Of a DNA stretch of 53,311 nt, positions 18,336 to 49,416 are shown piece after piece; positions within the stretch are counted from its first letter, which is position 1, and every line of letters begins with the position of its first letter. Both the position numbers and the translations under genes were made by a program. Source of the stretch: an uncultured Victivallales bacterium. Lineage in GTDB: Bacteria > Verrucomicrobiota > Kiritimatiellia > UBA8416. The stretch is taken from positions 1-53,311 of the forward strand of contig CAZOXS010000227.1 of NCBI GenBank assembly GCA_964583785.1, read 5' to 3'. A model generated the notes under the pieces. That model was not told the DNA's origin, ran no database searches, and saw only the letters and a list, made by a program, of their open reading frames with translations.

Positions 18336-22523
<4,188 letters not shown>

Positions 22524-22552
22524 TGTAGTTGCCTCCCGGCTTAAGCTTCGTT

Positions 22553-25500
22553 TTATAACAGACGACTGCGCTTCTGCCCCTCGACTTGTATGTCAAGGCA
22601 CAACCCGCGAAGCTCGTTGATCAGAACACTGAAGGATTCCGGCATCCCCGCGTCCAGCGTGTTGGTTCCCTTCACGATGGACTCGTAGATGCGCGTACGG
22701 CCGCTGACATCGTCGCTCTTGACCGTCAGCAGTTCCTGCAGCGCGAACGCCACCCCGTAGGCCTCCAGCGCCCAGACCTCCATTTCGCCCAGACGCTGCC
22801 CGCCGTACTGCGCCTTGCCGCCCAGCGGTTGCTGCGTCACGAGCGAGTAGGGGCCCACTGCGCGAGCGTGGATCTTGTCGGTCACCAAGTGGTGCAGCTT
22901 CAGGATATAGATCTGCCCAACCACGACGCGCTGATCAAACGGCTCGCCCGTGCGCCCGTCATACAGGACGCTCTTGCCGTCGCGCGGCAACCCGGCCTTC
23001 TCCAGCAGGTCGTCGATCGCGCCCTCCTTGATACCATCAAACACCGGCGTAGCCGCATGCATGCCAAGAATCTTGCACGCTGCGCCCAGATGCGTCTCGA
23101 ACACCTGACCCAGGTTCATGCGCGACGGCACACCCAGCGGGTTGAGCACCACCTCGACCGGCGTCCCGTCCGGCAGGAACGGCATGTCCGCATCCGGCAC
23201 GATCCGGGCCACAACACCCTTGTTGCCATGCCGGCCGGCCAGCTTGTCACCCACCGAGAGCTTCTTCTTGGCCGCGATGTAGACCTTCACCTGCTTGATG
23301 ATACCCGCATCCAGATCGTCACCACTCTCCAGCCGTTCCAGCGAGCGCTCGTGCTCCTCGTCGATCTCGGCGAACTTCGGCTTGTACTCGTTGATGATGG
23401 CGTCGATCTTGATCTGGATCGGGCTGCTCTCGATCGCGATATGCTCGCTGACCGCGGCCAGCTTGCGCAGCAGCGTCTTGGTGATCTTGCGGTTGGCCGG
23501 GATCACAACCTCGTCGGCTTCCACATCGCGGACGTCCAGCGGGATCTTCTCGCCTAGGAGAACATTGCTCAGCGCCTCGGTCAGATCGTTCTGTAATTCC
23601 TGACGCTTCGCCTTGTGGTCATCCTCGATCGCCTTGCGCTGGCGCTTGCGTTCCGCCGGCGTGCTCTCGGCACTCTTCGCCTCCTTGTGCGCCGTGACCT
23701 TGACATCCATCACGATGCCGTAGGTCCCGCTCGGCACGGTCAGCGAGGTGTCGCGCACCTCTGCCGCCTTCTCGCCGAAAATGGCACGCAGCAGGCGCTC
23801 TTCCGGTGCCAGCTCGGTCTCGCTCTTGGGCGTGATCTTGCCGACCAGAATGTCGCCTGGGCGCACTTCCGCACCCGGACGGATCACGCCGTCGGGGCCC
23901 AGGTTGCGCAGCGCCTCCTCGCCGACATTCGGGATGTCCCGCGTGATCTCCTCCGGGCCGAGCTTCGTGTCGCGCGCCCCGACCTCGAATTCCTGGATCT
24001 GGATCGACGTGAAGGTGTCTTCCCGCACCAGCCGCTGGCTGATCAGGATCGCATCCTCGAAATTGTAACCGCACCAGGGCATGAAGGCCACCAGCAGATT
24101 CTTGCCCAGCGCCAGCTCGCCCTGGTCCGTGGCCGGTCCATCCGCCAGCGTATCCCCGGCTTCAACCCGCTGCCCGATCCGCACGATCGGTTTCTGGTTG
24201 ATGCAGGTCCCCGCGTTCGAACGCCGGAATTTCTGTAGGCGGTACTCACGACACGACTCTTCGGAGGTACGCTTGGTCGGCATGCTGCCATCATCGGAAA
24301 CCACAATGCGCGTGGCCGAGACATAAGCAACCGTACCGGCCCGTTCCGCCAGGACCATGACGTGCGAGTCACGCGCCGCGCGCTCCTCCAGCCCCGTCGC
24401 CACGAACGGGCGTTCCACCCGCAGCAGCGGCACGGCCTGCCGCATCATGTTCGCCCCCATCAACGCGCGATTGGCATCGTCATGCTCAAGGAACGGGATC
24501 AGTCCCGCCGCGATACTGATGACCTGCTTGGGCGACACGTCCATGTAGTCGATTTCCGTACCGGGGACTTCCAAAAAGTCGCCACGGTGGCGGACCCAGA
24601 CCAACGGATTATGGAACTTGCCGTCCGCCTCGAGCACGGCATTCGCCTGCGCGATCACGAACCGTTCCTCCTTGTCGGCCGAGAGATACTCTACTTCATC
24701 GGTTACACGGCCGTCCTTGACCTTGCGGTAGGGACTCTCGATAAAACCGAAGTCATTCACGCGGGCATAAATACTGAGCGAGGAGATCAGGCCGATGTTC
24801 GGACCTTCCGGCGTCTCGATCGGACAGATGCGCCCGTAATGACTGCTATGAACGTCGCGAACCTCGAACCCGGCACGCTCGCGGCTCAGGCCGCCCGGTC
24901 CCAACGCGCTGAGACGACGCTTGTGCGCCAGCTCGGAAAGCGGGTTGGTCTGGTCCATGAACTGGCTAAGCTGGCTGCGCCCGAAGAAGTCCTGCACCAC
25001 CGCCGAGAGCGACTTCGAATTGACCAGCCGCTGCGGCGATAGCGTTCCCGTCGTCGGGTCGAAGAGCGTCATCCGCTCGCGGATCAAACGCTCCGTGCGG
25101 GCCAGCCCCATACGGCACTGGTTCTCCATCAGCTCGCCGATCGTGCGGACACGACGGCTGCCGAGATGATCGATATCATCGACATTCTCGGACCCGCGGC
25201 GCACATTGATCAGATGCCGCAGGGCCTCGATCACATCGCGCTCGTCCAGAACGCGCATGTCATTGTCGATCTCGGTATCCAGACCGAGTTTCTGGTTGAT
25301 CTTGTAGCGGCCTACCCGCCCAAGGTCATAGCGGCGCGGATCAAAGAACAACCGCCGCAGAAGCTGCCGGGCGTTCGACGGGGTCGCCGGATCGCCGGGA
25401 CGCAGCTTGTGATAAATATCCTTGAGTGCATCGTCAGACGTGTGCATCGGATCAGCCTTCAGGCTCTTGAGCATCAGTCCTTCATCCCACGACACATCCA

Positions 25501-26317
25501 CCACGGACACCGCCGTGATCCCGGCATCGCGGATCTGCTTGATCGCCGCCTCGGTCAATGGCTCGTACTTGCGTGCCAGTACCGTCTTGGAATCCAGGTC
25601 GATGATATCGTCCTTGAACACCTTGTTGAGCAGGTCATCCTCGCGCATGCGGCTGGTGATCTTGATATCTGCAAAATCGTAGTACAGCCCGAGGATCTCC
25701 TCGTCCGTACCGTATCCCAGCGCCCGCAGAAACGTGGTCGCCAGGAACTTGCGGCGGCGGCGTTTGCGGTCCATGTAGATCCAGATCAGGTCCGACGTGT
25801 CAAACTGGATTTCGATCCAGGAACCACGGTCCGGAATAACCCGGATCGAATAAAGCATCGCCCCGTTCGCATGGACCGACCGCTCGCTGCAGATGCCCGG
25901 CGAACGGTGCAACTGACTAACCACCACCCGCTCCGCGCCATTCACCACGAAGGCACCGGTCTCGGTCATCAAGGGCACATCGCCCATGAAGACGACATCC
26001 TCGACCACCGAGTCCCCATCCTTCAAACGGAACGTGACGTGTAGAGGGGCAGCATAGGTCTGCCCCTCATACACGCACTCCACCGGGTCCAGTTTCGGTT
26101 CGGAAAGCTCGTATTTCGCGAAATCAAGCACATAACGTCCGTCATAGCTCTCGATCGGAAATACTTCCTTGAATATCCCCTGCAGCCCTTGCGCTTTACG
26201 ATCCCCTTCCGCAACATCGCGCTGCAGGAATTCCCGGTAAGAACGGGTCTGCACCTCGATCAGGTTCGGGGGATCAATAATCTCTCGCAGATTTCCAAAG
26301 TTTGTTCTATCTACCAC
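22553..26317 (-). CDS. rpoB: DNA-directed RNA polymerase beta subunit
   Basis: About 1254 aa. Contains [24 protein letters not shown] and [19 protein letters not shown]. The GTG at 26317 lies 5 nt after GAGGTG. The track start (TTG 26341) has no SD. Confidence 0.97.
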
Positions 26318-26355
26318 AAAGGCACCTCGCTGTTTATTCAAAGTCTACCGAATCC

Positions 26356-29474: not shown

Positions 29475-29551
29475 TGGCAGGCCAGGAGGGAATCGAACCC
29501 CCAACCCCCGGTTTTGGAGACCGGTGCTCTGCCAAATTGAGCTACTGGCCT
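29475..29551 (-). tRNA. tRNA-Trp (anticodon CCA), CCA end encoded
   Basis: Hand-folded cloverleaf: acceptor AGGCCAG/CTGGCCT, anticodon stem CCGGT/ACCGG, loop CUCCAAA, T-loop TTCGATT. Confidence 0.93.
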
Positions 29552-29816: not shown

Positions 29817-31025
<1,209 letters not shown>

Positions 31026-31117: not shown

Positions 31118-31193
31118 TGGAGCCCATGAGCGGGATCGAACCGCTGACCTCGTCCTTACCAAGGACGTGCTCTGCCAACTGAGCTACATGGGC
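31118..31193 (-). tRNA. tRNA-Thr (anticodon GGT), CCA end encoded
   Basis: Cloverleaf: acceptor GCCCATG/CATGGGC, D arm GCTC-AGTTGGCA-GAGC, anticodon stem CGTCC/GGACG with loop TTGGTAA, T arm AGCGG-TTCGATC-CCGCT. Confidence 0.94.
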
Positions 31194-38979: not shown

Positions 38980-39136
38980 CGCTATCAAACTCCATGTGGC
39001 ACTAATCTAAAGGCCGGAATCCCTAAAGGCGAGCATAAACATTCGAATCGTGCGTGACAACCCATTGGAAAAAGAGGGATAAAAAGAGTTGTAGACCAAT
39101 CCTTATCACGATACCATGCGATCGTTCCTTATACAA

Positions 39137-39170
39137 ACGCGACGGCATGACGCGACGGCATGACGCGGCG
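39137..39170. repeat. 13-bp tandem duplication (2.6 units)
   Basis: ACGCGACGGCATG occurs twice (39137-39162), followed by ACGCGGCG. It lies 40 nt upstream of the LTD gene start. Confidence 0.85.
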
Positions 39171-39209
39171 ATCATACGTTCCGAATATGCACACCATACA
39201 AGGGCAGGT

Positions 39210-40319
39210 ATGAATAGGTTTTTTTGCATCTGGCTCGTGATCGCGACCGCTTCCCATATCGCTACCGCCCAGGACATCATCTGGGAGGAGGATTTCACCG
39301 GCCAGACCGGCAAGGGTATCACGGCGGGGCCGGTCACGAATATGACGGATATCTCGAAGTGGTCCGTCTCGATACATGCCGAGTTCCCGACCAATGCGTA
39401 TCTGATGGTGGCGACAAATGCAACCCTGAAGGAATACTTCGAGAGCTATCGCCTCGGCGGCGAATGCGTCTGGCAATCCGAAAGCATCGATATCTCGTCC
39501 GCCGGACCGGTGGATCTGAGCCTACAGTTGCAGGAGGCATCAGCAACCACCATGACATCAAACGACTGGATCGGGGTATACTACCGTCTTGATGGGGGTG
39601 GCGAAATTATGTTTGCCGAGAACGGTTTTCTCTCGGGTGAATACGGAAGCACATGGATCACCGCCAGACAGCCTTGCCTATCCGGCACCGGCGTGGTCAT
39701 TAACGTCCGTATGCGAACCACACTGGCCAACAAGAACCACCGGATCGATAATGCGCGCGTCACCGAAACCAGCGTCCTTCACCCCTTGGTGCCGGGCAGG
39801 ATCTGGATCAACGAATTCCACTACGACAATAGCGGGGGCGACACCAACGAGGGCGTCGAGATTGCCGGGCCGGCCGGCTACGACCTCACGGGACACAAGG
39901 TCTATTTATACAACGGCGGCGACGGCTCGTATTACACGCCTGTCCTGAATCTAACCGGTACGATTGATGACGAAGGCAACGGTTTCGGTGCGGTCTGGTT
40001 CGACCTCGCAGGCATTCAAAATGGTGCGCCCGACGGGATGGCTCTGGTCCAGGAGAACAGTAGCGGCACCAATATCTTGCAAATCCTTTCGTATGAAGGC
40101 GGTTTCGCATTAACCGACGGCCCCGCCGGCGGTTGGTTTGCCGCTGATATCGGAGTGGCGCAGCCCGATGACAATCCGATTGGCCAAACACTCCAGTTGA
40201 TCGGCAAGAGCCAGACCTGGACCGACTTCACCTGGACGGGACCGGTCGAGCATTCCCGCGGCAGCCTGAACGCGGGACAGCAGATTGTGCGGCCCGGTTT
40301 TGTCCTCATCATCCGCTAG
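39210..40319 (+). CDS. Secreted lamin-tail-domain (LTD) protein
   Basis: Signal peptide MNRFFCIWLVIATASHIATAQD. The C-terminal half (RIWINEFHYDNSGGDTNEGVEIAG...YLYNGGDGS...DGMALV) matches the LTD pattern. Confidence 0.75.
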   Translation: MNRFFCIWLVIATASHIATAQDIIWEEDFTGQTGKGITAGPVTNMTDISKWSVSIHAEFPTNAYLMVATNATLKEYFESYRLGGECVWQSESIDISSAGPVDLSLQLQEASATTMTSNDWIGVYYRLDGGGEIMFAENGFLSGEYGSTWITARQPCLSGTGVVINVRMRTTLANKNHRIDNARVTETSVLHPLVPGRIWINEFHYDNSGGDTNEGVEIAGPAGYDLTGHKVYLYNGGDGSYYTPVLNLTGTIDDEGNGFGAVWFDLAGIQNGAPDGMALVQENSSGTNILQILSYEGGFALTDGPAGGWFAADIGVAQPDDNPIGQTLQLIGKSQTWTDFTWTGPVEHSRGSLNAGQQIVRPGFVLIIR

Positions 40320-42856: not shown

Positions 42857-42990
42857 CAGGACGTTGCAGGGATAAAGCCAAACAGGCGTAGCTTCGATTT
42901 CATCAGGGAACCCAAGACCGGCAGATCTTTCGGATAGACCGAGATCAGCCGTTTTCCCTCCTGCTGATAAAGGATCTGCTTCTTGTACAT
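42853..42990 (-). CDS. Hypothetical 45-aa ORF filling the convergent spacer downstream of the helicase gene
   Basis: Hand translation gives MYKKQILYQQEGKRLISVYPKDLPVLGSLMKSKLRLFGFIPATSC*. The ATG lies 2 nt after the helicase TGA. There is no recognisable family and no SD. Confidence 0.2.
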   Translation of the reverse strand: MYKKQILYQQEGKRLISVYPKDLPVLGSLMKSKLRLFGFIPATSC

Positions 42991-42992
42991 GC

Positions 42993-45791
42993 TCAAATTC
43001 GCCGCCCGCAGTGCGCCAGCACCCGCAGAATAGCATCCAGCACGGCATCCAGATGCGTGCCGATATCCTCGGCCAGGAAGCGCAGGACAAAATAGCCGTT
43101 TTCCTGTAGCAGCGCATCCTTGCGCCGGTCGCGCCGGTAAGCGTCGGGATCAGACAAATGCTGCGGACCGTCAATCTCGATGGCCAGCCGGGCGGTTCGG
43201 CAACATAAATCAACTTCCATCCGGCTGCGGTCGGTAAAGGGGATTGGCAGCAGATCGTTCAGCCGGAATTTTCCAGCGGTTCCCGGAAGCGTCTCCAGAC
43301 GTCGGAACAGGAACGCCTCTGTCGCGCTGCGTGCCCGATCTTCCCCCTCGGCATCTGCCTGCAGCTTACGCGTGGCATGAACAAACAGGTTGCCCAGATC
43401 CGTATCAACCCCGTCGCGGATCAACCGCTGCACCGTGGCCGCATAATCCCGCTTCCATTCCGGATCAACCGGCAGCGGCACTTCAACGGGCCAGCCTGGG
43501 ACCGCACTGGCCGGCAGCAGGATCTGATAACCAATCCCGTCGTACCCCTTGCAACGCCGATCAAACATCCGCGCCAGCATCGGTTCGTTCAAATCCGCAT
43601 AGTCATAAATCCGCACTTCACGCTTGAGGTCGTGCAACCGGTGCAGCCGTCCGGCATATTGCGCGATGGTCCCGCGCCAGGAGATGGGGAGCGTCAGGAA
43701 CAGGGTATCCAGCCGCGCATCGTCGAACCCCTCGCCCAGATAGCTTCCCGTGGCCAGCAGCACGCGTCCCTCGTCCTCGGGAATAGCGGCCAGCCGGGCG
43801 ATCACCTCCCGGAAGGATTTGGGCTTCATGCCGCCTTGCAGAACCAGCAGGTTTGGAATTGCCGACGATAGACGCTCCGACAAGATGGCAAGATGCTCCG
43901 TTCGCTCGGTTAGCACGACCGGCGAACGCCCTTCCTTGACCGCCGCGATCACATCTGCGCAGATCTGCTCATTACGGCTCTTGTCGGCAATCAAGGCGGC
44001 GTAAAGCGCCTGAAACGCCTGACGCTTGTCACCGCCCGTGTCTTGATGCAACCGAAAGGCCGTCGGTCTGACAATCACGCTGTGCGTGAACGGCCTGGCG
44101 GCGGCCTGCGCCTTCGCATTCACGCGATACCGGATCGGACCGCATTGCATGAAAATGATCGGATGATGACCGTCCTTGCGTGTCACGGTGGCGGAAAGAC
44201 CGGTCACATAACGCGCTTTCGCCTGACGGGCCACCTGTTCGAAGCTGCTGGCGGATAGATGATGGCATTCATCAACAACCAGATGCCCGAATCCGCCAAC
44301 CCGATCATCAACGACTCCCTGCCGAACCAGGCTTTGTATGAGTGCCACATCGAGGATCCCGGTTGCCTTTTTCCTGCCGCCGCCGATCCGGCCAATAGCC
44401 TTTGCGGGGATTTCAAGAAAGGTGGACAGCCGCTCAATCCATTGCTCCAGCAATTGCTTGCGATGCACCAGGATCAGCGTGTTGACGCCCCGCTGGGCGA
44501 TCAACCACGCGGCAATCACGGTCTTGCCGAATGCCGTCGTTGCCGACAGCACGCCCGTGTCATGCCTCAGCAAGGAATCCGCCGCGAGCTGCTGCTCCGG
44601 GCGCAACCGGCCATGGAAGACAAACTCGCCATCCAAGCCTTGAAAGCGCTCATCATGAATTCGCGGCTTTATGCGCTGTGTCGTCAACAGCGCCAGCAGT
44701 TCGTCCAGGCAGCCACGCGGCAATCCGATATACTGTTTCAAATCTTCCGCACAGGCAATAATGCGCGGTTTGTCAAAGGTCGGAAAGCGCATCGCCTGGG
44801 CCTTGTAGAACTCCGGGTTCTGGAAGGCCGCCAGCCGGATGAGCCGATTGCGCAGACCGGGAGGCAATGCTTCTTTCGGAACATAAATCTGGTTGCCGAG
44901 CGTAATATCAAGGGATTTTGGCAAAGACCCTGCGATGGGCGGATCGGTTGTTCGCCGCGAAGGCGATGCGCCCCAAGGAGCGACGGCATGCTCGTCATCA
45001 CTGATCGGATAACGAACCCCGGTAACGTCCTGATGCCGCTCGGCTTCGGTGACCACCGACTCAATCTCGGACCGACTCAGTCGCCCGACGCCCGCCAGAT
45101 ACGCCCATTGGTCGTCATAGGGGTTCAGGGCTTCATCCAGGAACACGCTGTTTCCGGACTGGCGCGGCTTCTTCTGCATGGGGAGCGCGATCAGGTTTCC
45201 AAATCCGCCTTTTGGCAAGGTGTCCTGATTGGGGAAAAAGCGGTCATACGAATCGAGTCCGGTTTCCGGCCGGCACTCCATGGTTACCGTCAGGATATGC
45301 GCGCCGAGCTTCCTGGCCAGGACCGCCGGGACCGGCTCCTTGAAAAAGAGCCACAGGTGCGCGCCGTTACCGGAACGCGAGCGTTCGACGGATGCCGGAA
45401 GCTGCATCTGACGGCAGGTCTCCCGGACGACTCTCACGTCGTCGATCCAGGCCTCCTTGTCAAAATCCATCGCCAGAAACCAGCAGGTCTCATCCAGCAG
45501 CATCGGATAAACACCGGCGGTAAAGTCCCGCCCGGCGGCATCCTCGCCGCGAAGGTGCTGCCCGATGACGACATCGGAGACGGGCAGCAACCGTCGGTTC
45601 GGACACTCCGCGCATTTCACGCGCCGCTTGTCGCACACATCCCGCACCCACTCATTCGCACAGGCCGGACTGTAACCGGATTTCCCGGTCTTGCGACTCT
45701 CGAAACGCTGCGGATACACATCCTCGCGACCGCGGAAAATGCTGCGGAACAAGGCGATCTTGTCAGCGGACGATGAGAATTTATTGATCAT
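42993..45791 (-). CDS. Primase-polymerase (AEP)-like / SF2 DExH helicase / DUF559 (Vsr-like PD-(D/E)xK) nuclease fusion protein
   Basis: 932 aa. The N-terminus has FLAMDFD, SGNGAHLWLFF and GGFGNLIALP. The helicase has TAFGKT (Walker A), VVDECHH, SAT and QYAGRLHR. The C-terminus has EVDLCC..LAIEIDGPQH..RRDRRKDALLQENGYFVLRF. Confidence 0.85.
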   Translation of the reverse strand: MINKFSSSADKIALFRSIFRGREDVYPQRFESRKTGKSGYSPACANEWVRDVCDKRRVKCAECPNRRLLPVSDVVIGQHLRGEDAAGRDFTAGVYPMLLDETCWFLAMDFDKEAWIDDVRVVRETCRQMQLPASVERSRSGNGAHLWLFFKEPVPAVLARKLGAHILTVTMECRPETGLDSYDRFFPNQDTLPKGGFGNLIALPMQKKPRQSGNSVFLDEALNPYDDQWAYLAGVGRLSRSEIESVVTEAERHQDVTGVRYPISDDEHAVAPWGASPSRRTTDPPIAGSLPKSLDITLGNQIYVPKEALPPGLRNRLIRLAAFQNPEFYKAQAMRFPTFDKPRIIACAEDLKQYIGLPRGCLDELLALLTTQRIKPRIHDERFQGLDGEFVFHGRLRPEQQLAADSLLRHDTGVLSATTAFGKTVIAAWLIAQRGVNTLILVHRKQLLEQWIERLSTFLEIPAKAIGRIGGGRKKATGILDVALIQSLVRQGVVDDRVGGFGHLVVDECHHLSASSFEQVARQAKARYVTGLSATVTRKDGHHPIIFMQCGPIRYRVNAKAQAAARPFTHSVIVRPTAFRLHQDTGGDKRQAFQALYAALIADKSRNEQICADVIAAVKEGRSPVVLTERTEHLAILSERLSSAIPNLLVLQGGMKPKSFREVIARLAAIPEDEGRVLLATGSYLGEGFDDARLDTLFLTLPISWRGTIAQYAGRLHRLHDLKREVRIYDYADLNEPMLARMFDRRCKGYDGIGYQILLPASAVPGWPVEVPLPVDPEWKRDYAATVQRLIRDGVDTDLGNLFVHATRKLQADAEGEDRARSATEAFLFRRLETLPGTAGKFRLNDLLPIPFTDRSRMEVDLCCRTARLAIEIDGPQHLSDPDAYRRDRRKDALLQENGYFVLRFLAEDIGTHLDAVLDAILRVLAHCGRRI

Positions 45792-46606
45792 GCGGTTTCA
45801 TCCATCTCCGTGAGATGCTTCCAGTAGCGGGCGGGCATGAACTGGCGCTGCAGGGCGGGGTTGGTGCGGGTCTCGATGGCCACGGTGCGATGGAACGTCT
45901 TCCATAACATCTGGCTGCGGGCCTCGGCGGCCGACGGCTCGTCATCCGCCAGGCACTGAGTGAGCAGCGTGCCGGTGAGCAGGTCGCCGTCCGGGTTTTC
46001 GGCATTCAGTCGCTTCCCATCCCAGGTGGCGGCCTGCTGCCGACGGCAATCGAGAATCACCCAGCGTTGACTAGCCAGTCGGCGGCGGAAGTGAAACGCC
46101 AGCGGCAGGGTGATGTCGTAGTCCGGCTCGTAGAGGGCGATGAAGCGGCCTGACTTGAACTCCTGGAACCGTAGCAATCCCTTGAACCGGTGGATCTCCA
46201 GCGATACTTTACGGGCGTGGCGATGGACGAAGATCACGTCCGGATCCGCATGCGCTTGCACGATGCACGCCCCATGCAGCACCGCTTTGCGAGCATAGCC
46301 CAGCAGATGCGGTTCCAGCCCGTCCGGCATGGCCGTCAATGCCCGCAGCAGGGTGTGGACCACATCGCGTGACGCCTTGGCGGTAATGTAATTGAGAAAC
46401 CGCTCGGCACGCGCGGGATCAGACTCAACCGTTTCGCGGGCATCGGCAAAGAGGTCGCGCACCGCATTCGCCCGCGTGAACCGGACCGGCGGCTGCTCGA
46501 GCCGTTTGTAGGCCTCGGCCACGGCACACAGGCAGCCGGTAGAACTGCCATCATGCACCCATTCCACCGGTGGCAAATCAGAACGCGAATGTAAGTTGCT
46601 CGGCAT
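45788..46606 (-). CDS. DUF4130-like 'probable DNA metabolism protein' (radical-SAM-linked), no UDG domain
   Basis: WVHDGSSTGCLCAVAEAYK..., ...HRFKGLLRF.E......ALYEPDYDI and RWVILD match my recollection of the TIGR03915/DUF4130 family. The stop overlaps the helicase ATG (ATGA). The start is ATG 46606 or GTG 46567. Confidence 0.65.
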   Translation of the reverse strand: MPSNLHSRSDLPPVEWVHDGSSTGCLCAVAEAYKRLEQPPVRFTRANAVRDLFADARETVESDPARAERFLNYITAKASRDVVHTLLRALTAMPDGLEPHLLGYARKAVLHGACIVQAHADPDVIFVHRHARKVSLEIHRFKGLLRFQEFKSGRFIALYEPDYDITLPLAFHFRRRLASQRWVILDCRRQQAATWDGKRLNAENPDGDLLTGTLLTQCLADDEPSAAEARSQMLWKTFHRTVAIETRTNPALQRQFMPARYWKHLTEMDETA

Positions 46607-47813
46607 TGGCGGGCTGCGCCTCCTTGGTGAGTACCCGGCGTACGCTTTCGACGCTTTGCCGGCGGAATCCCGGCGAGCGCCCCGCCGCCGTGATGAAGAA
46701 AGCCGCCCGCTTGAGCACAACCCCAAGCTTCTGTAGATCGGCCAGGCAGAGCTTCTGGAAGCGGCGGGCGCTGACAATCCGGCGGGCGGAGGTCACACCG
46801 ATTCCCGGCACGCGCAGAATATGGGCATATTCGGCACGGTTGATGTCGACCGGAAAGAAATGATAGTTGCGGATCGCCCACATCGCCTTGGGATCGAGCA
46901 CGATGTCCAGGTCGGGCTGCGCCTCGGAGAGCAGTTCATCGGCCCGGTAGCCGTAGTTGCGCAGCAGCCAGTCGGCTTGGTAAAGACGGTGCTCGCGCAG
47001 CAGCGGCGGCATCTCGACCGGCTGGAGCCGGCTGTCGTAGCGGTTGACCGGGATAAACGCCGAGTAGTAGACGCGGCTGAGGTCGTAGTGCTGGTAGAGC
47101 GACTCGCCCAGCCGCACGATCTGTAGGTCCGACTCCGGGCTGGCGCCGACAATGAGCTGCGTGCTTTGCCCACCGGGAGCGAACGCGGGTGCCCGCCGGT
47201 CGCGGCGGCGTTCGGCCCGGCTTTCACGGATGCTTGTTCCCAGGAAAGCCATCGGGGTGATGATATCGGCCTTGGTCTTTTCCGGCGCCAGCTGCTTGAG
47301 CGACGCCTCCGACGGCAGCTCGATATTGACGCTCACCCGGTCGGCATAAAGCCCCGCCTGGCGCATCAGCTCCAGACTGGCACCCGGAATGGCCTTCAGA
47401 TGGATATAGCCGCCGAAGCCCTCCTCCTGGCGCAACCGGCGAGCGATGGCGACCATCCGGTCCATCACGCGGTCAGGCTCGCCAAAGACCGCCGAGCTCA
47501 GGAACAGGCCTTCGATGTAGTTGCGCCGGTAGAAATCCATCGTCAGCGTCACCACTTCCGCGACGCTGAACGTGGCGCGCGGACGATCGTTCCCGCGACG
47601 GTTGATGCAGTAGGCGCAATCGTAAAGGCAGACATTCGAGAGCAGGATCTTGAGCAGCGAGACGCAGCGCCCGTCGCTCGACCAGCTATGACAGATGCCG
47701 GAGGTGGACGTCGATCCGGTTTTCGCGCCCTTGCGGTTGCTGCCGCTCGACGCGCAGGACGCATCGTATTTCGCGGCATCGGTCAGGATCGCCAGTTTTT
47801 CTTCAAGCGTCAT
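46578..47813 (-). CDS. Putative DNA modification/repair radical-SAM protein with HhH motif
   Basis: MTLEEKLAILTDAAKYDASCASSG, CX3CX2C (CLYDCAYC), and C-terminal ILRVPGIGVTSARRIV (HhH). ATG at 47813. The 82-codon upstream extension in the track is rejected. Confidence 0.85.
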   Translation of the reverse strand: MTLEEKLAILTDAAKYDASCASSGSNRKGAKTGSTSTSGICHSWSSDGRCVSLLKILLSNVCLYDCAYCINRRGNDRPRATFSVAEVVTLTMDFYRRNYIEGLFLSSAVFGEPDRVMDRMVAIARRLRQEEGFGGYIHLKAIPGASLELMRQAGLYADRVSVNIELPSEASLKQLAPEKTKADIITPMAFLGTSIRESRAERRRDRRAPAFAPGGQSTQLIVGASPESDLQIVRLGESLYQHYDLSRVYYSAFIPVNRYDSRLQPVEMPPLLREHRLYQADWLLRNYGYRADELLSEAQPDLDIVLDPKAMWAIRNYHFFPVDINRAEYAHILRVPGIGVTSARRIVSARRFQKLCLADLQKLGVVLKRAAFFITAAGRSPGFRRQSVESVRRVLTKEAQPANAEQLTFAF

Positions 47814-47961
47814 ACTTCGGATATTAGCATACCGCAGCAACCTTGCAAAGCATGGGGTCAACAAAAGATTGTCTATTTTGTGGATTGCAGCGGGTGGACC
47901 AACGTGGTAGCGTTCCTGCTTTACCGCACCATTAACCCACTTTTCAGACAGGGGAATTCTC

Positions 47962-49416
47962 ATGAATTCTGAATGTTTTCCGGAAATGGCGGACAACGAC
48001 ACGCCCCGTGAGTTTTGCGGCGTATGCGGCGTGTATGGCGTCGAGAACATCGGTGCCACGCTCTATCAAGGTCTTTTCTCGCTCCAGCATCGTGGTCAGG
48101 AGGGTGCCGGCATCGCCACGGGCGACGGGGCCCGCGTGCATTCCGTAAAGGGGCTTGGCCTGGTGAGCGAGGTCTTCCATGGCAATGACTGGAGCCGCCT
48201 GCCGGGGCATCTTGGGATCGGCCATGTCCGCTACTCGACCACCGGCTCCTCCCGCATCCAGAACGTCCAGCCGCTGATCGCCGAATGCGTCGACGGGATC
48301 TGGGCGGTCGCGCATAACGGGAATCTGGTCAATGCCGCCCGGCTACGCAAGATGTACCAGGAGGCGGGCGCCATTTTCCAGACCAGCACCGACAGCGAGG
48401 TGCTGATCCATCTGCTGGCGGACCCCATGTACCGGATGCGCCCACGCCGGGTATGCCGTGCATTGGCCGAACTGGAGGGCTCGTTCTGTTTCCTGCTGAT
48501 GACGCGCAACTGTATGATGGCCGCGCGCGACCGCTACGGATTCCGCCCCCTCTCAATCGGTAAACTGGGCGACGGCTACGCCGTGGCCAGTGAGACCTGC
48601 GCACTCGACCAGATCGGGGCCGTGTTCCTGCGCGATGTCGAACCGGGCGAACTGGTGGTCTTCGACGAATCGGGCATGCACAGCAACTTCTTTGCCGAAG
48701 CCCCGGAACGCGGCTCGGCCAATTGCATTTTCGAGATGATTTACTTCGCACGCCCCGACAGCCGCGTTTTCGGCAAGAACGTACACGCCGTGCGGGTGGA
48801 CTACGGGCGTCAACTGGCCAAGGAACATCCCGTTGAGGCCGATGTCGTGGTCGCTGTGCCCGACAGCGGCAACTCCGCCGCGCTGGGCTATTCAATCGAA
48901 AGCGGCATCCCGCTCGAATACGGCTTCATCCGCAATCACTATATCGGACGTACCTTCATCATGCCGCAGCAGAAAGACCGCGTCTCCAGCGTGGACCTGA
49001 AGCTGGCCGTGCTGCCGGAAGTCATCTGCGGCAAGCGGGTTATCGTGGTCGACGACTCGATCGTGCGCGGCAACACCGCCCTCCGCCGCGTTCAGCTCCT
49101 GCGCCAGGCCGGTGCCGCCGAAGTGCACATGCGCATCTCCTGCCCCCCGATCAAGCACCCCTGCTTCTACGGCATCGACTTCCCGACCAGCAAGGAGCTG
49201 ATCGCAGGCGACATGAGTATCGATGAAGTCTGCCGGTTTATCGAGGCCGACTCCCTCGGCTACCTCAGTCTGGAGGCGCTGTTCAAGCCCTTCGCCAAGG
49301 CCGAGCACTTCTGCTGCGCCTGCTTCAACGGGCAATACCCGACCGACATCAGCGGCATGACCGGCAACAAGGAAGCCCTGGAAACAAGCCCGGAATTGAA
49401 TCTCAACCTCGTGTAG
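47962..49416 (+). CDS. purF: Amidophosphoribosyltransferase
   Basis: A propeptide-like leader precedes CGVCGVYG (Ntn Cys). Also contains SLQHRGQEGAGI, HVRYSTTG and the PRPP loop VVDDSIVRGNT. The SD AGGGGA lies 6 nt before the ATG. Confidence 0.95.
   Translation: MNSECFPEMADNDTPREFCGVCGVYGVENIGATLYQGLFSLQHRGQEGAGIATGDGARVHSVKGLGLVSEVFHGNDWSRLPGHLGIGHVRYSTTGSSRIQNVQPLIAECVDGIWAVAHNGNLVNAARLRKMYQEAGAIFQTSTDSEVLIHLLADPMYRMRPRRVCRALAELEGSFCFLLMTRNCMMAARDRYGFRPLSIGKLGDGYAVASETCALDQIGAVFLRDVEPGELVVFDESGMHSNFFAEAPERGSANCIFEMIYFARPDSRVFGKNVHAVRVDYGRQLAKEHPVEADVVVAVPDSGNSAALGYSIESGIPLEYGFIRNHYIGRTFIMPQQKDRVSSVDLKLAVLPEVICGKRVIVVDDSIVRGNTALRRVQLLRQAGAAEVHMRISCPPIKHPCFYGIDFPTSKELIAGDMSIDEVCRFIEADSLGYLSLEALFKPFAKAEHFCCACFNGQYPTDISGMTGNKEALETSPELNLNLV

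Follow-up and report, generated by a model that had tools for sequence, protein, structure and literature searches.

A radical-SAM/DUF4130 gene pair and an AEP-helicase-nuclease gene side by side in a Victivallales bacterium: two probably independent modules

Three consecutive genes on the minus strand of an uncultured Victivallales bacterium are considered here: a radical-SAM gene (46578-47813), a DUF4130 gene (45788-46606) and a gene for a 932-residue protein (42993-45791) that joins an AEP primase-polymerase domain, a superfamily 2 (SF2) helicase and a DUF559 endonuclease. The coordinates stem from a scan of open reading frames (ORFs) and refer to the window, by which we mean the whole stretch of 53,311 nucleotides that was analyzed (contig CAZOXS010000227.1, assembly GCA_964583785.1). 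The initial annotation of this stretch saw in the three genes a candidate DNA-modification or defense system. We consider it quite likely that the locus instead combines two independent modules, brought next to each other in one lineage: a damage-response pair and a horizontally mobile predicted conflict gene. Both families are already catalogued and the locus is a lineage-specific juxtaposition of them; a three-gene system is not supported, because the trio is absent from the 83 loci surveyed for the 932-residue protein and from 79 of the 80 surveyed for the radical-SAM protein.

The three genes and their products

The radical-SAM gene starts at ATG 47813, giving 411 residues within a maximal ORF of 46578-48059, and this is the right start since the protein aligns to the TIGR03916 profile from its first position. 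Its stop codon TGA (46578-46580) lies inside the DUF4130 gene if the latter starts at ATG 46606, which creates a 29-nt overlap and a protein of 272 residues within a maximal ORF of 45788-46777; an alternative GTG at 46567 would place the start 10 nt after the TGA. We favor the ATG because the sequence AAGGAGG is located 12 nt upstream of it and because the same MPS start, with an identical 29-nt overlap, recurs in four related loci (L085, L086, L169 and L171). The DUF4130 stop and the start of the third gene are joined in an ATGA at 45788-45791. The coordinates, the overlaps, the ATGA, the CLYDCAYC motif and the segments AAKYDASCASSG and VPGIGVTSARRIV that had been read from this DNA before were all recovered in the sequence.

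The radical-SAM protein matches TIGR03916 (NCBIfam) over practically its full length, with residues 3-405 aligned to profile positions 1-405 at 600.4 bits against a cut-off of 343.5, which bears out the family to which it had been assigned. Two Pfam domains, Radical_SAM and HHH_3, were identified. The CX3CX2C cluster motif CLYDCAYC is encoded at 47607-47630 on the minus strand, and the helix-hairpin-helix (HhH) segment VPGIGVTSARRIV, residues 322-351, at 46761-46850 (HHH_3, 1.8e-5). A sequence search against solved structures returned a weak match of this segment to the ComEA-related HhH protein 2duy; for the rest of the radical-SAM protein and for DUF4130 it gave no useful match. Neither of these two proteins matched a model in PADLOC-DB v2. 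Among named relatives, those closest to the radical-SAM protein come from the Kiritimatiellia, the Verrucomicrobia and the Victivallales, which places the organism in the Planctomycetes-Verrucomicrobia-Chlamydiae (PVC) group.

Six cysteines of the radical-SAM protein are invariant among 79 relatives, namely C62, C66 and C69 of the cluster motif and an N-terminal triad, C20, C41 and C50, which is encoded at 47664-47756. Judging from its invariance, the triad may hold a second, auxiliary iron-sulfur cluster; we found no description of such a cluster in the TIGR03916 family.

The DUF4130 protein scores 197.1 bits against TIGR03915 (cut-off 112.25) and matches PF13566 at 1.1e-41, so that the identity of both partners and their pairing, as proposed in the initial annotation, could be confirmed. 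DUF4130 is its only Pfam domain, the C-terminus lies 4 residues past the end of the profile, and there is no uracil-DNA glycosylase (UDG) domain. The absence of this domain had been taken to mean that the gene for the 932-residue protein occupies the place of a missing UDG module. Among 54 complete DUF4130 ORFs in relatives, however, 47 finish at most 40 residues after the domain and 7 carry an extension of 230-250 residues; the one extension of the seven that was checked, in L153, is a UDG. The form without UDG is thus the usual one among the relatives, and no UDG has therefore been replaced.

In most of the 80 related metagenome loci the DUF4130 gene adjoins the radical-SAM gene. Elsewhere the two are fused into single chains of 655-709 residues with the order radical-SAM, HhH and DUF4130 (L111:88-2055, L145:7857-9986, and also L134 and L142-L144), and this Rosetta-stone evidence argues strongly that the products of the first two genes make up one enzyme. 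A link of DUF4130 to SplB-like radical-SAM enzymes and to UDGs was drawn by Aravind and colleagues in 2013 (PMC3765255), and a 2026 preprint presents a confidently predicted AlphaFold 3 heterodimer of the pair, in which DUF4130 is predicted to adopt a DHH-like nucleotide-binding fold without the catalytic residues (bioRxiv 10.64898/2026.08.19.745780). The COG4277-COG1573/DUF4130 operon is reported to be under SOS/LexA control in Verrucomicrobia, Alphaproteobacteria and Bacteroidetes (PMC8565304), and in Acinetobacter the radical-SAM and TIGR03915 genes are reported as a DNA-damage-response pair activated by DdaA (PMC12392091). In view of these two studies, the description of the pair as functionally uncharacterized calls for some qualification; we found no experimental characterization of the TIGR03916/TIGR03915 family, nor of the family of the 932-residue protein, in the literature.

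This first module (45788-47813) is a widespread two-gene cassette, and in the mechanism that we propose for it the radical-SAM and DUF4130 proteins would form one DNA-bound enzyme. The HhH domain would anchor the pair on DNA, DUF4130 would present a nucleotide or a single strand, and the CX3CX2C cluster would cleave S-adenosylmethionine to yield a 5'-deoxyadenosyl radical that attacks a damaged base, leading to its repair or processing. The N-terminal cysteine triad and the natural fusions are useful handles for the biochemistry of this radical-SAM/DUF4130 system.

The third gene encodes a solitary fusion protein whose three domains, as listed in the initial annotation, were confirmed by Pfam. 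The AEP domain (residues 10-245, encoded at 45057-45764) matches PF22548, "AEP-TOTE," over profile positions 1-229 of 230, at 2.3e-97 and 325.6 bits against a cut-off of 27. The SF2 helicase core (residues about 395-740, 43572-44609) matches ResIII at 1.7e-20, with the ResIII/DEAD core beginning at residue 395, and the phrog_16 DNA helicase over residues 339-736. The C-terminal Vsr-like PD-(D/E)xK endonuclease (residues about 856-928, 43008-43226) matches DUF559 (PF04480) at 2.1e-12 over residues 860-925 and the DUF559 protein 3hrl at 9e-8. In the solved-structure profile matches, the helicase was closest to XPB/Rad25, the AEP domain to the CRISPR-associated PrimPol (CAPP) 7nqd and the C-terminus to 3hrl. 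Among the profiles proposed for these three genes, TIGR03916, TIGR03915/PF13566, PF04480, ResIII and AEP thereby found the families that had been named.

The catalytic motifs of all three domains are invariant in an alignment (A1) of 18 homologs. They comprise D109-x-D111, S140..H145 and the cysteines C44, C53, C60 and C63 in the AEP domain; the Walker A motif GKT (422-424), DECH (507-510) and motif VI (Q711..R718) in the helicase; and E859, D861, E872, D874 and H878 in DUF559. Since these residues are conserved, the primase, helicase and nuclease activities are probably all intact. An AlphaFold2 model from an 18-sequence alignment was poor, with a mean predicted local distance difference test score of 57.9 and a predicted template-modeling score of 0.35.

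The protein belongs, as had been suspected, to a family that is labeled as a component of conflict systems (PF22548). In PADLOC-DB v2 it matches accessory or partial models only, the best being PrimPol (6e-91), followed by weak matches to PbeA, mREase_IV and DpdF; no system-defining model was matched. We suggest that the 932-residue protein is probably an autonomous DNA-targeting enzyme, for which a role in defense or in conflict between genetic elements is most likely. This second module (42993-45791) would act alone, translocating on DNA as an XPB-like motor while the AEP domain primes or extends on exposed single strands and the Vsr-like nuclease nicks the DNA.

Conservation of the trio and spread of the third gene

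We surveyed the surroundings of the 932-residue protein in the best 80 of 541 genome matches (60-83% identity) and in three further contigs, L081, L082 and L083, which encode relatives with 89%, 90% and 83% identity. All proteins in this set of 83 loci are at least 60% identical to the query, and 61 of the loci hold at least 2.1 kb of upstream sequence, some contigs being short. In the 80 genome loci, tblastn detected no radical-SAM or DUF4130 homolog at a distance of up to 8 kb, and the three additional contigs were likewise without one. In the reverse direction, among the best 80 of 144 metagenome matches to the radical-SAM protein, the gene for the 932-residue protein follows the pair at a single locus, L084. 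It was also missing from all seven further loci of close radical-SAM relatives. Among the sampled loci the trio is thus confined to this lineage, an outcome that the initial annotation had itself named as refuting, and the proposal of a conserved three-gene system is not supported. The tight packing and the ATGA overlap are by themselves insufficient to infer a system; here the neighborhood census gives the opposite answer.

The close relatives differ in what comes next after the DUF4130 gene. The neighbor is an ORF with a P-loop in L085 (radical-SAM protein 95% identical), a convergent AraC regulator in L166-168 (91%), a thioredoxin-like gene, read from its ORF translation only, in L100 (88%), a convergent histidine kinase with a response regulator in L169/170 (88%) and a 120-residue ORF in L171/172 (77%), and in L086 (79%) no partner was called. 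Within this lineage, the site downstream of DUF4130 seems to be occupied variably. The gene order in L169 (GFO, GFO, APH, purF, MatE, radical-SAM, DUF4130) is syntenic with the window on the purF side, with APH and MatE as additional genes, so that this locus comes close to an empty-site comparison. The helicase-like ORF behind DUF4130 in L085 (L085:2475-3270) contains the P-loop-like motif LPMGAGKTF, reaches the end of the contig and has no match in Pfam or PADLOC.

The junction between the modules can be placed at 45788-45802 on the minus strand. Homology to the window in blastn searches ends at 45802 in L085, 45800 in L086 and 45813 in L100, and the DUF4130 homology in relatives thus stops about 10 nt before the ATG of the third gene. 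The DUF4130 proteins end in ...TEMA* (L085), ...TEMDP* (L086) and ...PEMNDSSE* (L100), as compared with ...TEMDETA* in the window, where the frame runs on to the TGA within the ATGA. Because the DUF4130 homology ends here and the homology among genes for the 932-residue protein begins at the ATG, we interpret the overlap as a by-product of the junction rather than an old coupling device. The second module would have arrived, or recombined, directly behind DUF4130, and the DUF4130 frame would then have run into the new ATG to create the ATGA.

The single locus with the same arrangement, L084 (1-6226), is not an independent case. In mismatch counts per 100 nt, the stretch from 47813 to about 47013 differs from the window by about 14%, whereas the following 4.4 kb, down to 42629, contain only 3 mismatches and are thus practically the same; for this reason it adds no separate evidence for the trio. 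Its panC gene and the first approximately 800 nt of its radical-SAM gene resemble L085. The locus would be either a recombinant of the same lineage, with co-occurring strains and a crossover within the radical-SAM gene, or a chimeric assembly.

The family of the 932-residue protein is broadly spread, with more than 8000 matching proteins and identities of about 70% across Lentisphaerae, Verrucomicrobiota, Planctomycetota, Acidobacteriota and Proteobacteria. There is no conserved neighbor: when flanking ORFs were clustered, at most 6 of the 83 loci shared any of them. The neighbors that recur in 3-6 loci each include toxin-antitoxin genes of the PIN, AbiEii and AbiEi types, and ParB-like genes stand beside two close relatives (L082 and L083). 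Most members have an upstream region of 70-250 nt of their own. We considered and rejected the idea that the gene is generally a promoterless cassette behind other genes, since the gap is 25 nt or less at only 10 of 77 loci; in L082, L083 and L001 the relative is packed 7-12 nt behind another co-directional gene. With its conserved catalytic motifs, this large family is a reasonable candidate for screens of defense and plasmid conflict.

The gene also appears to move with very little else. Approximately 20 nt after its stop codon (42972-42992, GCATGTACAAGAAGCAGA) are conserved in L081:10800-10820, where an 89% identical gene resides in an unrelated context. Since the homology among these genes sets in with the ATG and continues for about 20 nt past the stop, hardly anything beyond the ORF itself seems to belong to the mobile unit. 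No adjacent transfer RNA (tRNA) gene or CRISPR array was found that would mark the gene as a classical insert. Matches to the AEP-helicase part were obtained in 184 plasmid records, mostly from conjugative rhizobial plasmids, and these homologs measure approximately 770-815 residues, lack DUF559 and have ParB, ArdC-like and DUF736 genes nearby or tniB-tniQ directly before them. In phages we found unrelated helicase-core matches only and no full-length homolog. Plasmid loci of this kind, which are common among conjugative alphaproteobacterial plasmids, include L165 (691-8283; NZ_CP115459.1, Sphingobium plasmid pTB1) and L164 (5911-8274; pSinB). In one plasmid the AEP-helicase gene is placed directly downstream of tniB and tniQ and overlaps tniQ, which suggests that it is transposon cargo.

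Regulation and alternative explanations

The 932-residue protein could alternatively serve in DNA repair, replication restart or the maintenance of mobile elements, for example by priming and unwinding for a conjugative element, a role that we consider rather unlikely. It would fit with a helicase core closest to the repair helicase XPB/Rad25, with the shorter plasmid homologs and their neighbors, and with the ParB-like genes in L082 and L083. Archaeal XPB, moreover, works with a partner nuclease (XPB-Bax1). However, Pfam classes the AEP domain with a conflict system, the model for the CRISPR-associated PrimPol gives the best PADLOC match, and a patchy occurrence in several phyla, with identities of about 70% and changing contexts in which a few loci carry toxin-antitoxin genes, is typical of defense or mobile cargo. 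Fusions of helicases to Vsr-type nucleases are also a recurrent feature of defense systems (PMC12458937).

The region upstream of the radical-SAM gene is shared with the divergent purF (47814-47961). It contains a candidate extended -10 element, TGCTAATAT, at 47821-47829, only 7 nt before the radical-SAM ATG. Boxes of the TATATT type, resembling a -10 element, are present 7-10 nt before the radical-SAM start in L088, L089, L091 and L092 as well. Such short distances to the start codon suggest that the radical-SAM messenger RNAs are leaderless, or nearly so, here and in several relatives. A palindrome, GACAATCTTTTGTT, at 47860-47873 on the same strand occurs once in the window; we do not claim it as an operator, as the corresponding regions of close relatives lack it, and no other operator shared with them was found upstream of the radical-SAM gene. 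Three Cheo-type boxes (GAAC-N4-GTTC, the Gram-positive LexA consensus) can be read upstream of the radical-SAM gene of a distant relative (L103:7800-8000), in agreement with the SOS control reported for the family. By analogy with its homologs, the pair is probably damage-inducible in this organism too.

Against this background, the solitary conflict gene may have been captured behind a damage-inducible operon and be expressed together with the damage response, for instance upon prophage induction, without forming a complex with the pair. Such regulatory co-option strikes us as unlikely. [quoted passage not shown] The relatives in L082, L083 and L001, 7-12 nt behind co-directional genes, provide similar arrangements. 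On the other hand, no LexA-type operator can be recognized in front of the radical-SAM gene, none of four types of LexA box was enriched upstream of 77 other genes of the 932-residue family, most members of that family have an upstream region of their own, and an arrangement limited to one lineage may be neutral.

A more intimate version, a functional capture of the conflict gene by the damage-response operon, we give only a slim chance. If it were true, repair chemistry and a DNA-targeting effector would be turned on jointly by DNA damage or by prophage induction, the effector might even act on the lesion or intermediate generated by the pair, and the locus would show a new multi-gene system at an early stage of its emergence.

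Finally, a single dedicated system of three proteins for DNA modification, defense or lesion processing, with the AEP-helicase-nuclease in place of the UDG module, is very improbable: the packing of the genes, the DNA-directed nature of all three proteins and the modularity of DUF4130, which also occurs fused to other DNA enzymes, UDG among them, speak for it, but the adjacency is missing from both censuses except in L084 of the same lineage and from the seven close relatives, including the syntenic L169, the DUF4130 proteins without UDG form the majority, and the junction coincides with the end of the DUF4130 homology.

Several observations weigh against our preferred explanation of two independent modules. 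The locus has the look of a functional operon: the three genes are probably transcribed as a single unit, given their co-orientation, the ATGA overlap, the lack of any promoter-like site between them and a number of weak terminator-like matches in the region that is at chance level (6 versus 4.3 expected), some of these within coding sequences. Upstream of the radical-SAM gene no LexA box of the form TGTTC-N4-GAACA was found, and the window has no more matches to it than expected by chance, although this is the Verrucomicrobia-type consensus and may not be that of the host. Neither target-site duplications nor terminal repeats, inverted ones included, were found flanking the third gene, and among the relatives we found none that combines an empty site with the same flank downstream. 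Rarer co-occurrences of the trio may exist beyond the sampled loci, and the biochemical functions of both modules are inferred only. With regard to the operon-like appearance, we think that co-transcription from the radical-SAM promoter is plausible in this organism, as a secondary arrangement that is not evidence of a three-part machine.

The wider surroundings are those of an ordinary core chromosome without an obvious genomic island, as seen from the nearby rpoC, rpoB and tuf genes (18336-26341 and 29817-31025, minus strand). The base composition over the locus shows no anomaly. Profile scans of the neighbors confirmed the housekeeping flanks described in the initial annotation, argC with two bactofilins and purF, the last being divergent from the radical-SAM gene. 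GFO oxidoreductases and a SpoIIE phosphatase are found among the other long ORFs scanned around the locus, and the window also contains tRNA-Trp (29475-29551) and tRNA-Thr (31118-31193). An ORF of 421 residues that adjoins argC (39054-40319, plus strand) has no Pfam match.

Comparison with known systems

The TOTE conflict systems, named after "TPR, OB, TBP, Effector," are defined here after a study that cites Aravind, Iyer and Burroughs 2022 (PMC12458937). The N-terminal domain of the 932-residue protein shares the TOTE-type AEP, with PF22548 matched from end to end. TOTE systems are, however, encoded by several genes, and no TPR-OB/CSD or TBP partner genes were identified among the long ORFs scanned around the locus; the 932-residue protein is a solitary AEP-helicase-nuclease fusion and does not amount to a complete TOTE system.

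Among solved AEP structures, those of CAPP (PDB 7nqd/7nqf) are the nearest by sequence, matched at 1e-12 over residues 86-254. The score against the CAPP model NF040561 is nevertheless 75.6 bits, below the cut-off of 200, the 932-residue protein adds a helicase and a nuclease, and a scan of the window detected no tandem-repeat (CRISPR-like) array. The N-lobe of the helicase is most similar to XPBII/Rad25 (6e-20), and both follow the same helicase-plus-nuclease logic. This similarity is limited to the helicase core, with 57.2 bits against NF045503 compared with a cut-off of 610, and in contrast to XPB-Bax1 the nuclease is a fused DUF559/Vsr type instead of Bax1 and an AEP domain has been added.

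A further parallel is Hhe, reportedly a single-protein helicase-Vsr defense gene from the work of Gao and colleagues in 2020. The YprA helicases of ARMADA have Vsr-type C-termini and belong to the recurrent helicase-Vsr fusions of defense systems (PMC12458937). Like these proteins, the 932-residue protein combines an SF2 helicase and a Vsr-like PD-(D/E)xK nuclease in one polypeptide that is encoded in variable contexts. It differs in that the helicase is of another clade, an AEP domain is present and the defense role is a predicted one; it matched neither the Hhe nor the YprA model of PADLOC.

The first two genes, by comparison, conform closely to the TIGR03916/TIGR03915 pair. Apart from the absence of a UDG fusion and of a recognizable LexA operator, the locus has the features of the family, with scores above both cut-offs, overlapping genes in the order radical-SAM and DUF4130, the CX3CX2C motif and the C-terminal HhH domain, and it is set apart by the foreign gene that has been appended downstream.

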